Of a DNA stretch of 30,163 nt, positions 16,796 to 21,194 are shown one piece after another; within the stretch, counting starts at the first letter, position 1, and each line of letters begins with the position of its first letter. The translations under genes were made by a program, and so were the position numbers. The DNA is taken from IMG/VR virus record IMGVR_UViG_2850796239_000002; one strand, written 5' to 3'. The DNA is from a virus (Duplodnaviria > Heunggongvirae > Uroviricota > Caudoviricetes). The notes under the pieces are model-generated. The model ran no database searches, had not been told where the DNA came from, and saw only the letters and a program-made list of their open reading frames with translations.

Positions 16796-16827
16796 GTAAG
16801 CGCCCCGAGAAGTACGTAGCGTAAGGA

Positions 16828-18428
16828 TTATTTTACAGACGAGAAGTTCCAGGGCAGCAGTTCATGCACTTGGTTCGACGGCCAGTCATTGAGCTTCTCG
16901 ATCACTTCGCGCAACCAGTCCTCCGGCTCCACTTCGTTCTGTTTGCAGGTGACCAGCAGACTGTAGATGATCGCCGCACTTTCTCCTCCCTTGTCTGAGC
17001 CGAAAAAGAGATAATTTTTTCTTCCAACCGCCACCGATCGTAACGCGTTTTCACCGATGTTGTTGTCTATTTCCACCCAGCCGTCACGACAGAACTCGTT
17101 CAGCGCATTCCAGTGATTCAGGATATAGTCGAACGCCTTCGCCATCTCCGCATGTTTCGACAGCGTTTTCCTCTGCAATTGTATCCAGTCGTACAACGAC
17201 TGCATCAACTGGACGCTTCTGGCTTTTCTGACTGCAAGCCGTTCCTCTGCCGGACTGCCACGTATCTCCGCTTCTATGTCGTATAACTCTGCTATCCGTC
17301 TGAGCGCTTCCTGAGTCATTTCTGTCGGACGGCGCACATCCTCGTCATGGATTTTTCGGCGGGCGTGGGCCAGGCACCCGGCTTCCTTCACCCGGCCCGT
17401 TTCGTACAGTACGTTATAACCTGCATAGGCATCAGCCTGCAGTACGCCCTGATACTTTGCCAGGTGGAGCTGCGGATGTTCTCCTTTGCGATCTGCCGAA
17501 TACGCGAACCAGACGGCTGCCGGCAGGGATGAACCCGCATTACGATCATCCCTGACGTATACCCACAGACGACCCGTTTTCGTCTTTCCGTTCCCCGGGG
17601 CCAGTACTTTCACCGGAGTGTCATCTGCGTGCACCTTTCCTGCCTCCAGAACATAGTCATTCAGCGCTATATACAGAGGACGGAGTTTGTCTGCCATTTC
17701 TGATACCCAGCGCACCATGGTATTACGGCTCAGCTCCACGCCCTGTCGCGCGTATATTTCTGACTGGCGATATAAAGGGATATGTTCCATATATTTGCTG
17801 ACCAGGATCCGTGCAAGTAACCCTGCACTGGCATAACCGCGTTCGATCGGTTTAGGGGAAGTGGTGCCTGAACGATGACATCACACCGGCTACAGGCCAG
17901 TTTGGGACGTATGGTTTCGATAACTTTAAAGGCGGTATTAATGATATCCAGTTGCTCTGAGATTGTTTCCCCCATTTCTTTCAGAACACCTCCACAGGCC
18001 GGGCAACTGGTTTCAGCAGGCAGAAGGCGATGTGTCTCCCGGGGAAGTTCTGCCGGCAGCGGTTTTCGTGAAGATTTTCGTCCCGGGGATTCAGGCTTAC
18101 TGGCGATCGGGTTTTCTGACGGGGGACTGGTGTCAGGTGAATCTGTGACTGACGATGCATCTTCCAGAAGATTTCTGGCTGTGTTCAGCCGGTTTTCCAG
18201 TTCCGACAGTCGTTTTTCTGCCTGTCGGATCTGATTTTCAAGCTTATGACGCTTTTTCTCTGAACTCTGGCCGAACAACATACGACGCAACCTGTCGAGT
18301 TGCGCTTTCAGCCGTTCAATTTCCTGCTCATAGCCCGCGACCTGACAGGCATACTGTCGAAGCCGACTCTGTTGCTTACGCAACATGGCTTTAAGCAGCT
18401 CAATATCATCGGGGAGTTCATTGTTCAT
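16828..18428 (-). pseudogene. IS66-family transposase TnpC, split into 232-aa and 320-aa ORFs by a frameshift near 17730..17790
   Basis: Two overlapping ORFs in different frames whose combined length (~530 aa) matches IS66 TnpC; N-terminal coiled-coil plus Cys pair, C-terminal DDE-type domain. Confidence 0.65.
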
Positions 18429-18447
18429 TCCCTTGTTTTATCACGGG

Positions 18448-18795
18448 TTATATCCGGATGCCAGGCCGTTCTGTCCGTTTGGGATGTTGCCACGCGATCC
18501 CCTCCAGTAGCATGGATAACTGAGCTGGCGTCAGGTGCACTTTCCCTTCCCGGGTCACCGGCCAGACGAAGCGGCCCCGTTCCAGGCGTTTGGCGAACAG
18601 GCATAACCCGTCACGATCGGCCCACAGTATTTTCACCATTTTGCCACTGCGGCCCCGGAAGACGAAGATATGCCCGGAGAACGGGTCATCTTTCAGCGTG
18701 TTCTGCACCTTCGAAGCCAGGCCATTGAAGCCACAACGCATATCTGTGATGCCAGCGATGATCCAGATTTTGGTACCGGTCGGCAGCGTTATCAT
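18448..18795 (-). CDS. IS66-family TnpB (orf2)
   Basis: 115-aa ORF MITLPTGTKIWIIAGITDMRCGFNGLA... typical of IS66 orf2; its ATG overlaps the upstream tnpA stop (ATGA). Confidence 0.75.
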   Translation of the reverse strand: MITLPTGTKIWIIAGITDMRCGFNGLASKVQNTLKDDPFSGHIFVFRGRSGKMVKILWADRDGLCLFAKRLERGRFVWPVTREGKVHLTPAQLSMLLEGIAWQHPKRTERPGIRI

Positions 18796-18924
18796 CGGAT
18801 ACCCCCTTTCATTTCGCGGATTAGCGCCCGTAACAGTTCCGGAGTGAGAGGGTCAAACAGTTTTACCACACCTGATTTAAGATGCAGCTCGCACCGTGGG
18901 ACGTTTCCGGGAGCCCCCTCAGGG

Positions 18925-20224
18925 CTGAGGAATCCCCAGAAAACGAGACAGACATAGCATTATGTGATCTACTGATTTGTGCCAACAATTCAATGAGATC
19001 ACTGCTATGCCTGTTCATAAAGTATGTCAGAATTTCTTCCGGGATGCCTTAGCACCATTTCATCAGTACCGACAAAATGCCCTGATGGATGCCACAGTGG
19101 CGTTAATCAACGGAGCATCTCTGACGCTGACCAGTATCGGACGTTTTTTGCCGGGTAATGCACAAGTTAAGAATAAGATCAAACGTATTGATCGCCTCAT
19201 GGGTAATGAGGCGCTCCATCGCGATATTCCAATGATTTTCAGGAATATCACTTCAATGCTGACACGGCAGTTATCTTTATGTGTAATAGCCGTAGACTGG
19301 AGTGGCTATCCCTCCCAGGAGCATCATGTTCTTCGTGCCAGCCTTCTGTGTGACGGGCGTTCCATTCCGTTATTGAGTAAGGTTGTTCCTTCTGAAAAAC
19401 AAAATAATCCATTGATACAACATGATTTCCTTGATTCCCTTGCTCAATCCCTGCCCCCGATGCCAGGGTTATTATTGTCACGGATGCTGGATTTCAGAGC
19501 GCATGGTTTCACCATATTACTTCTCTGGGCTGGGATTTTATTGGTCGGATCAGAAATAACGTTCAGTATTGCCTCGATAACGCGCCTGAAAGATGGTTAA
19601 AAGTGTCGGATAGCCCTGAATGTAAAACACCGGAATATATGGGGGCTGGAAGGCTGGTTAAAGAAAGGAAAAAAAGCATCCGGGGGCATTTTTACACCTA
19701 TAAGAAATCGGCAAAAGGGCGAAAAAAGAAACGTTCGAAAGGTCAGAGTGGTTTAAACAAAACAGACAAAGAACAGAGCAAATCAGCAAAAGAAGCCTGG
19801 TTGATCTTCAGCAGTACAAATGACTTCAGAGCGCGAGAAATCATCAAGTTATACAGTCGGCGAATGCAGATTGAGCAAAACTTTCGTGATGAAAAGAACG
19901 GGCGCTTCGGATTTGGTCTTCGGGCCAGCAAAAGTCGTTCAACAGGAAGAATTCTGGTTCTGAGTCTGCTGGCAACGTTGAGCACTATCGTAATGTGGTT
20001 ACTCGGTTATCACGCTGAAAATAAAGGGTTACACCTGAAATATCAGGCTAACAGCATTAAATCCCGGCGGGTTATCTCATATCTGACGTTAGCGAAGAAT
20101 GTTCTTCGACACTCGCCACTTATTTTAAGACGAACAGTACTGAGCACAGTTCTAAACCATCTGTCCAGAACCTACCGAAATATGGTGCTGGTTTATTAGC
20201 AGTAATTTTGTGGGGATCCCTCAG
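18925..20224 (+). mobile_element. IS4-family IS10-like element, copy 1 (1300 bp), perfect 9-bp target duplication CCCTCAGGG (18916..18924 and 20225..20233)
   Basis: Ends CTGAGGAATCCCCAGAAAAC... and rc CTGAGGGATCCCCACAAAAT..., similar to IS10 termini; transposase resembles IS10 Tnp; 9-bp duplication as for IS10. Confidence 0.8.
18977..20199 (+). pseudogene. IS10-like transposase, frameshifted (C5 run at 19454..19458 vs G6 in copy 2)
   Basis: ORFs 18977..19600 and 19603..20199 together equal the intact 407-aa copy-2 protein except for a 1-bp difference in a homopolymer. Confidence 0.7.
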
Positions 20225-20828
20225 CCCTCAGGGCGCTCATCATGCTTGTTACGCCAGAAGGGATTTGTAACTGGTCTGGTCGGCTCCGGCGTATCAGTCA
20301 GTGCCACCGGGACAGGCATGCATTCCTGTATGTCATCATCGCTCAGTAAGCCGTCCTCGTACTGGCTTTTCCATTTAAACAGCAGGTTATTATTGATATC
20401 GTGTTCTCTGGCGATCCGGGCAACAACAGCCCCAGGCTGTAACGCCTGCTTAGCCAGACGGACCTTAAATTCACGGCTATAGCTGGTTCGCCGTTCTTTT
20501 CGCCATGAGCCTTCTCTGATTTGAGGCTCTGTTAATTCCTTCTTTCTGTTGGCATAAAGGATGGCGTCAAGTTGAGCGAATGAAACTGAATCGGGCAATG
20601 GCCATGCGATACCGGATGCAAGAAATCGCTGAAAAAGCGTATGTATTGTGGAATGACTGAGACCCAGACGCTGAGCGATGGCCCGGATGGTCAGTTTATC
20701 TTCAAATCTTAAACGCAGGGCATCAGGCAAATAAGAACGGAAGCAGGGAATATCTTTTGTTGTCTGGGAATTCATCGTTCGTGTCCATCAATATAGATGG
20801 ACGCGATTGTTGCCAGACAGGACAATTT

Positions 20829-21194
20829 TCACAAGACGTCGCTGATGGGGCGCTTACTTCTCACGGAGGCCCCTGAAAGCGGCGCATCAATTTCCAGTAG
20901 TACGTTGATATGAAAATCAGGGGGCAGCAGAAACAATTGCGGTCTGATATCAATAAAAAGGCGGGAAATAATTTCGGATAAACGCCCGGTAACCGGTTTA
21001 TTGGTTAATACGGGAATGACACTGCGACGCACAGTATCTTCTCCGCGCAAATCAGCGTAAGTATTCAACACCTGCTGACGCGCCAGAAATGCTGTTGTAG
21101 TTTCTGCAACGGAATCACCATTCAGCGCGGTTTGTACGGAAAAACTAAGTATCTGCAACGCCCGTCGTCCCCGTCGCGTTTCCTGCAAAATCAC
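20829..21194 (-). CDS. Hypothetical protein, 3' end replaced by IS66-family sequence (truncated at 20857)
   Basis: 121-aa minus-strand ORF whose last ~9 codons lie inside the IS terminal repeat; normal-GC region adjacent to the AT-rich cargo. Confidence 0.3.
   Translation of the reverse strand: MILQETRRGRRALQILSFSVQTALNGDSVAETTTAFLARQQVLNTYADLRGEDTVRRSVIPVLTNKPVTGRLSEIISRLFIDIRPQLFLLPPDFHINVLLEIDAPLSGASVRSKRPISDVL

Follow-up and report, generated by a model that had tools for sequence, protein, structure and literature searches.

An ISSfl1 copy nested in the tnpA gene of ISSfl3 in the chromosome of Shigella boydii ATCC 35964

A transposable element that appears to lie inside another raises a question: do the two represent successive insertions, and, if so, can their order be read from the DNA? 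We addressed this question for a stretch of 30,163 nucleotides (the window) cataloged as the IMG/VR virus record IMGVR_UViG_2850796239_000002. A sequence-only reading of the window had described positions 16796-20857 as an IS10-like insertion sequence (IS) inside the tnpA gene of an IS66-family element. All of these coordinates hold: an element of the IS4 family, ISSfl1, lies inside tnpA of an element of the IS66 family, ISSfl3. We consider it very probable that ISSfl3 was present first, that ISSfl1 then entered its tnpA, and that one flank was rearranged later; the frameshifts now seen in the two elements are most likely consensus errors.

The window is 100% identical to CP026875.1 (GCA_002950355.1), the Shigella boydii ATCC 35964 chromosome. 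A plasmid of that strain has the accession that follows, CP026876.1, and we infer that the two form one assembly. A literature search for the strain or the accession returned no match.

Excision of ISSfl1 restores tnpA

The inner element is bordered by two copies of CCCTCAGGG, one at 18916..18924 and the other at 20225..20233; the latter corresponds to ISSfl3 positions 625-633. This target-site duplication is perfect, as had been claimed: all nine base pairs (bp) agree in a direct repeat, which abuts IS ends that were defined independently. The chance expectation of a 9-bp repeat is 4^-9, or about 4e-6. When 18925..20233 was removed in silico, 2753 bp remained, and these could be aligned end to end with the intact 2754-bp ISSfl3 of NZ_CP065615.1; the comparison revealed nine substitutions, one 1-base gap, and a junction without insertions or deletions. 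The excised sequence contains an open tnpA frame, and the earlier manual translation was thus correct. The restored TnpA has 224 amino acids, ends in ...GGIR, and differs from WP_046881738.1 at two residues. Its stop codon overlaps the ATG of tnpB in the tetranucleotide ATGA (18792-18795), the feature that the sequence-only reading had invoked in support of the boundaries, and the annotated intact copy has the same 4-nucleotide overlap.

The order of events proposed in that reading, with the IS66-type element arriving first and the other second, is borne out by the nesting itself and by three other chromosomes. CP026836.1, CP026824.1, and CP027027.1 share exactly this junction of ISSfl3 with the prophage (...GCGCTTAC/TGAAAAAGCAGAAACC); in all three, the 224-amino-acid tnpA is uninterrupted and ISSfl1 is absent. 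Because these three chromosomes carry the same-junction ISSfl3 without the second element, we conclude that ISSfl3 was there first. The relative timing of the two IS events can be read cleanly from this locus, as genomes that lack the second one confirm.

The junction between ISSfl3 and ISSfl1 was found in none of 5426 complete E. coli genomes, no place in the PLSDB plasmids spans it, and exact-pattern scans of the GTDB representatives and of JGI metagenomes did not return it. The collection searched contains the 184-residue truncated TnpA that ISSfl1 created just once. The biological weight of the nested insertion is small, as insertions of one IS into another are commonplace in Shigella; each genome has hundreds of such elements and no fewer than 199 pseudogenes (PMC7373316). 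Both elements are already cataloged and the genome is public; the nested insertion is ordinary genome decay.

The outer element is ISSfl3

The outer element occupies 16796..20857 on the minus strand and comprises 2753 bp of its own sequence plus 1309 bp contributed by ISSfl1 and the duplicated target. After excision, it is 99.6-99.8% identical over the full 2753 bp to RefSeq copies annotated ISSfl3; the name rests on that annotation, which reads “IS66-like element ISSfl3 family transposase.” Its ends form a perfect 11-bp inverted repeat: GTAAGCGCCCC on the tnpC side (16796..16806) matches the reverse complement of 20847..20857 on the tnpA side. IS66-family termini typically begin GTAAGCG, and those of ISSfl3 do likewise. 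The element further resembles the family, including its relatives IS679 and ISEc8, in the order tnpA-tnpB-tnpC, in the ATGA overlap, in its TnpB_IS66 domain, and in the leucine-zipper (LZ), zinc-finger, and DDE_Tnp_IS66 domains of TnpC.

All three genes are on the minus strand. The 5' part of tnpA (20234..20775, with its start at 20775) encodes HTH_23 and HTH_Tnp_1 domains and matches the IS66 accessory TnpA model NF038385 with 284 bits. The open reading frame (ORF) as it stands, 20221..20775, specifies native residues 1-184 and then terminates at a TGA furnished by the ISSfl1 end. The 3' remnant (18792..18924) retains the last 40 codons and the stop, whose TGA overlaps the tnpB ATG, and is severed from the start of the gene. 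Intact tnpB (18448..18795) encodes 115 amino acids and matches PF05717 (TnpB_IS66, 133 bits) and NF033819. The DDE transposase gene tnpC (16828..18428) specifies 533 amino acids in intact copies, with the domains LZ_Tnp_IS66, zf-IS66, DDE_Tnp_IS66, and DDE_Tnp_IS66_C. Here it is read as two overlapping ORFs, 17730..18428 (232 amino acids) and 16828..17790 (320 amino acids). The IS66 transposase profiles of Pfam and NCBIfam that were matched are PF03050 (317 bits), PF13817, PF13005, PF13007, and NF033517.

Compared with annotated ISSfl3, the window copy is thus distinguished by a tnpA interrupted by ISSfl1, a tnpC that is one base short (probably an error), and the lack of an 8-bp duplication. 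Elsewhere in E. coli and Shigella, other guests interrupt ISSfl3 at other sites, namely ISEc11 (in tnpB) or IS600, and one intact ISSfl3 copy itself sits within another IS66-family transposase gene.

The inner element is ISSfl1, a relative of IS10

ISSfl1 occupies 18925..20224 on the plus strand and was identified by near-identity to annotated copies of this IS10-related member of the IS4 family; it has 1300 bp, vs. 1301 bp in intact copies. From end to end, it shares 99.8% identity with the NZ_CP065615.1 copy, whose annotation reads “IS4-like element ISSfl1 family transposase” (99.8-99.9% when the second copy in the window, described below, is included), and it matches an independent full-length copy base for base save for one missing C and one substitution. 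The element starts with CTGAGGAATCCCC and finishes with GGGGATCCCTCAG. Its terminal repeats (18925-18943 and 20206-20224), which start with CTGAGG, are imperfect, agreeing at 17 of 19 positions. The transposase frame (19007..20199, plus strand) encodes 397 amino acids when intact and is split here; both fragments match the same model as does the intact transposase of a neighboring copy, for which PF01609 (DDE_Tnp_1) gave 67 bits and the IS4 model NF033591 gave 363 bits.

How closely is this element related to IS10? The description “IS10-like” is apt in a loose sense, given the family, the ends, and the 9-bp duplication, but the element is not IS10: its transposase shares only 35% amino-acid identity with that of IS10A over 368 residues. 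Like ISSfl1, IS10 (IS10A of Tn10) has a single DDE_Tnp_1 transposase of ~400 amino acids from the same family, and the IS10A motifs VDWS, TDAGF, and Y..RMQIE..FRD.K align with their counterparts in ISSfl1. The terminal 13 nucleotides are identical at 12 positions (CTGAGGAATCCCC vs. CTGAAGAATCCCC), and IS10 also generates a 9-bp duplication at a quasi-symmetric target. The targets differ, however: those observed for ISSfl1 resemble CCCTGAGGG, unlike the IS10 consensus NGCTNAGCN, which was reportedly described by Halling and Kleckner in 1982.

An Rfam scan of 16500-21200 (E<=1) for an antisense RNA of the IS10 type (RNA-OUT) yielded only a chance microRNA match, a null result that, at this divergence, is still compatible with an analogous antisense RNA in ISSfl1. 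An outward promoter at the left end of ISSfl1 that might drive tnpB and tnpC was considered and rejected: the sole promoter-like site is internal to the element and scores below the expectation from shuffled sequences.

A second full-length ISSfl1 resides in the vgrG region of the window (26864-28164, minus strand, 1301 bp) and encodes an intact 397-amino-acid transposase. Inverted relative to the nested copy and 6.6 kilobases (kb) away from it, it is the same sequence except for the C run. Its flanks agree at only eight of nine positions (GCGCAGGGT vs. GCGCAGGGG). The two inverted copies bracket 20225-26863 in the manner of a composite transposon, and their outer flanks show no duplication. 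At almost the same vgr site, CP026845.1 also has an ISSfl1, with junctions that differ by 1-2 bp.

Proposed course of the insertion and its consequences

In the sequence of events that we propose, a copy of ISSfl3 already bordered a truncated Mu-like prophage when ISSfl1 arrived. ISSfl1 then transposed into tnpA codons 181-184, making a staggered 9-bp cut at the G+C-rich, nearly palindromic CCCTGAGGG and thereby duplicating its target. Transposition was presumably of the cut-and-paste type, as for IS10. The insertion cuts off the start of tnpA from its final 40 codons and from the coupled tnpB start, and TnpA ends at residue 184. The translational coupling of tnpA to tnpB through ATGA would be broken. 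With TnpA truncated and this coupling lost, the window ISSfl3 should be non-autonomous, by analogy with the biology of IS679 and IS66, reportedly described by Han and colleagues in J Bacteriol in 2001. Both of its ends are intact; other ISSfl3 copies could therefore mobilize it in trans, if the same analogy applies.

The frameshifts are probably consensus errors

Two frameshifts mark the nested structure. Relative to intact ISSfl3, tnpC is broken because a G5 run (17855-17858) is one G short. The sequence-only reading, which had counted this frameshift as an additional inactivation of the host element, overlooked the other: a C6 run in ISSfl1 has lost one C (C6 to C5, 19454-19458), splitting the transposase, shortly before its second catalytic Asp motif (VTDAGF), into ORFs of 207 and 198 amino acids. 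The tnpC frameshift is indeed present in the sequence, but its status as a further inactivation is doubtful, a homopolymer consensus error being the most likely cause. To judge from the sequence comparisons, both frameshifts probably are long-read consensus errors in G/C homopolymers.

When run lengths were set against those in near-identical references (eight comparisons), one base was missing from 7 of 44 G/C runs of at least five bases, vs. 1 of 112 A/T runs; no run was longer. The plasmid CP026876.1 exhibits the same tendency: at 99.7% identity over 16 kb, three of its G5/C5 runs are shortened, and the ISSfl1 copy that it carries has a different 1-base loss. Two independent assemblies, L027 and L028 (the latter being the draft GCA_000193915.2, contig AERN01000091.1), share the IS600 and ISSfl3 junctions of the window and show no substitutions in the stretch of prophage and IS600. 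The C4 of the window at 15224-15227 is C5 in both, and in L028 the runs in tnpC and ISSfl1 are likewise of full length (G5 and C6). Furthermore, the identical 232-amino-acid TnpC fragment is encoded at several other ISSfl3 loci in the assembly of the window and in two sibling assemblies, and CP026845.1 has an identical 197-amino-acid ISSfl1 fragment at no fewer than 10 different loci. The contigs with either fragment are all longer than 50 kb, with no short ones among them, and all of the places examined are in sibling assemblies. An ISSfl1 with a dead transposase could not have spread to that many sites.

Some points weigh against the overall reading. In the draft L028, the sequence of the IS portions may be a consensus of collapsed repeats, and its intact tnpC and ISSfl1 ORFs are thus no proof for the window copy. 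The orthologous ISSfl3 copies at the same prophage junction in the three other chromosomes (loci L017, L019, and L024) carry real lesions: L019 and L024 have a common 35-bp tnpC deletion between TCCCCGGGA repeats, and L017 has a 5-bp duplication of ACTGC. Real decay of the window ISSfl3 is plausible for this reason. As to the proposed course of events, cut-and-paste transposition, polarity on tnpB and tnpC, and rescue in trans are only inferred from IS10 and from IS679/IS66.

Might the insertion be real and both frameshifts be real mutations as well, such that both elements are dead relics at this locus? We regard this as unlikely. The frameshifts are present in the deposited sequence, the ISSfl3 orthologs in CP026824.1, CP027027.1, and CP026836.1 have clearly real inactivating lesions, and the pseudogene load of Shigella cited above is in keeping with decay. 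However, every 1-base gap at issue is a deletion within a G/C run, and 16% of such runs are affected; the same short runs recur at many unrelated IS loci, exclusively in long contigs and, at all places examined, in sibling assemblies; and independent assemblies have runs of full length at the same locus. We retain the view that the two frameshifts are probably consensus errors. For homopolymer frameshifts in the CP026875.1 assembly and its CP0268xx siblings, pseudogenization should not be called without read-level support.

The shortening of G/C runs also splits a 203-amino-acid prophage gene and vgrG (25230 region) in the window, in addition to tnpC and the ISSfl1 transposase gene. Split genes of the same kind are found in the sibling assemblies CP026836.1, CP026824.1, and CP026845.1.

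ISSfl1 has entered this part of tnpA elsewhere

A second nested arrangement of ISSfl1 in ISSfl3 was found at an unrelated locus of CP026845.1 (4906147-4920740; about 6285-10400 within the extracted locus), between an HSP70-like gene and msbA/lpxK. There, ISSfl1 has the opposite orientation and is bordered by the duplication CCTGAGGGG, which corresponds to ISSfl3 positions 626-634 vs. 625-633 in the window. Because of the opposite orientation and the 1-bp offset, we regard that insertion as an independent hit. At a chromosomal ISSfl1 site outside any IS, the duplicated 9-mer is again CCCTGAGGG, and other ISSfl1 duplications are likewise G+C-rich (CCCGCGCGGG, CGCACGCGGG, and CCCTGCGCAC). The duplications at other copies measure 9 or apparently 10 bp. 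These targets fit a sequence-directed choice of the IS10 type, with a recurrent site within the tnpA gene of ISSfl3.

The draft L028 presents a more complicated case. Its contig matches window positions 6490..18924 (12.4 kb) at 99.95% identity, up to the same insertion point. At that very position of tnpA, ISSfl1 is flipped (contig positions 4379-5679); the far flank is unrelated DNA (GGTGCAGGG), and there is no duplication. Recombination between ISSfl1 copies was rejected as the cause of the flip: after homologous exchange, a flank would still be joined to the same IS end. The flipped copy represents either a third independent hit that was followed by recombination or a flaw of the draft assembly.

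Tentatively, the quasi-palindrome CCCTGAGGGG in ISSfl3 tnpA might be a preferred, orientation-independent hot spot for ISSfl1, in which case one IS would recurrently disable another. We offer this as a possibility, and a somewhat doubtful one, because of the hit in CP026845.1, the flipped ISSfl1 of L028 at the exact position seen in the window, and the reuse of CCCTGAGGG elsewhere. If the preference were strong, ISSfl1 could restrain the expansion of ISSfl3 in Shigella boydii lineages.

The flanks of ISSfl3 and alternative histories

On its left, ISSfl3 is flanked by tail and morphogenesis genes of a Mu-like prophage (14833..16795, minus strand) that are 99.7% identical to the prophage of VL40. 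The element lies 5 nucleotides inside the start of a 103-amino-acid prophage gene; the half with the head, terminase, and early genes is absent, whereas the VL40 prophage runs on into the major head gene. On its right is the 5' half of a gene of a type VI secretion cluster (20858..21470, minus strand); the 3' half of that gene and the tssM/tssA side of the cluster are missing there. The junction between the type VI gene and ISSfl3 recurs with 100% identity over 3.6 kb in short-read contigs from eight runs; contigs of SRR4787083 and SRR1811688, for instance, are identical to window positions 20830-24462.

No 8-bp duplication surrounds ISSfl3 in the window, where CTTTTTCA is found on one side and TTCTCACG on the other, whereas an intact ISSfl3 elsewhere has the clean 8-bp duplication GGGAAGTC. 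The window copy is therefore a rearrangement junction. We read the absent duplication as the outcome of later rearrangement, and it provides no ground for excluding the element from the IS66 family. Orthologous ISSfl3 copies (L017, L019, and L024) have tnpA-side flanks that are unlike that of the window and partly unlike each other, and none has an 8-bp duplication; this end of ISSfl3 has therefore been exchanged repeatedly. In the window, an IS-mediated rearrangement would have replaced the tnpA-side flank, fusing prophage DNA to the truncated type VI secretion gene.

A simple deletion between a neighboring prophage and type VI cluster was also considered and set aside: the relatives are uninformative on this point, as the insertion sites of Mu-like phages are strain-specific. 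Among the relatives, the prophage adjoins cusS in VL40 and is intact in FDAARGOS_943.

The exchanges at this end of ISSfl3 prompt another reading of the nested structure, namely that ISSfl1 hit a different ISSfl3 copy and that homologous recombination or gene conversion brought the interrupted tnpA here; in that case, the locus would not be a strict record of the order of events. ISSfl3 is multicopy, it lacks a target duplication here, its tnpA-side flank takes different forms in the window, in L017/L024, and in L019, and a nested ISSfl3::ISSfl1 does exist at another locus in CP026845.1. That copy, the sole other nested one found, differs in orientation and by 1 bp, however, and hence is not the donor. 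We consider import improbable, and, either way, ISSfl1 entered a pre-existing ISSfl3 sequence, such that the relative order stands. Finally, although the assembly is error-prone at the base level and the near-identical locus of the draft L028 has ISSfl1 flipped at the same point with a different far flank, an assembly chimera arising from repeat collapse is highly improbable: no misjoin would yield a perfect 9-bp duplication of ISSfl3 beside exact ISSfl1 ends and an indel-free excision, and the base errors are homopolymer losses, not structural ones.

Other features of the window

The Mu-like prophage also harbors an IS600 (13569-14832, 1264 bp) between its tail-sheath gene and a DUF2635 gene. 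This element is 100% identical to annotated copies, is flanked by a 3-bp duplication, and is also present in the assemblies L027 and L028. Compared with the VL40 prophage, there is a 12-bp in-frame deletion at position 10011, within a 614-amino-acid ORF (9301..11145) that is annotated “phage tail protein” in VL40. Window positions 10114-10849 had no BLAST alignment to VL40.

Finally, an 845-bp segment of low G+C content (about 30%) at 26019-26863 contains a 153-amino-acid ORF (26182..26643, minus strand). It had no megablast match in the 5426 complete E. coli genomes. Two copies of the initial 243 bp of vgrG (25777-26018 and 28165-28406, 91.8% identical) enclose the segment, which may represent a cargo or immunity gene of the type VI system.

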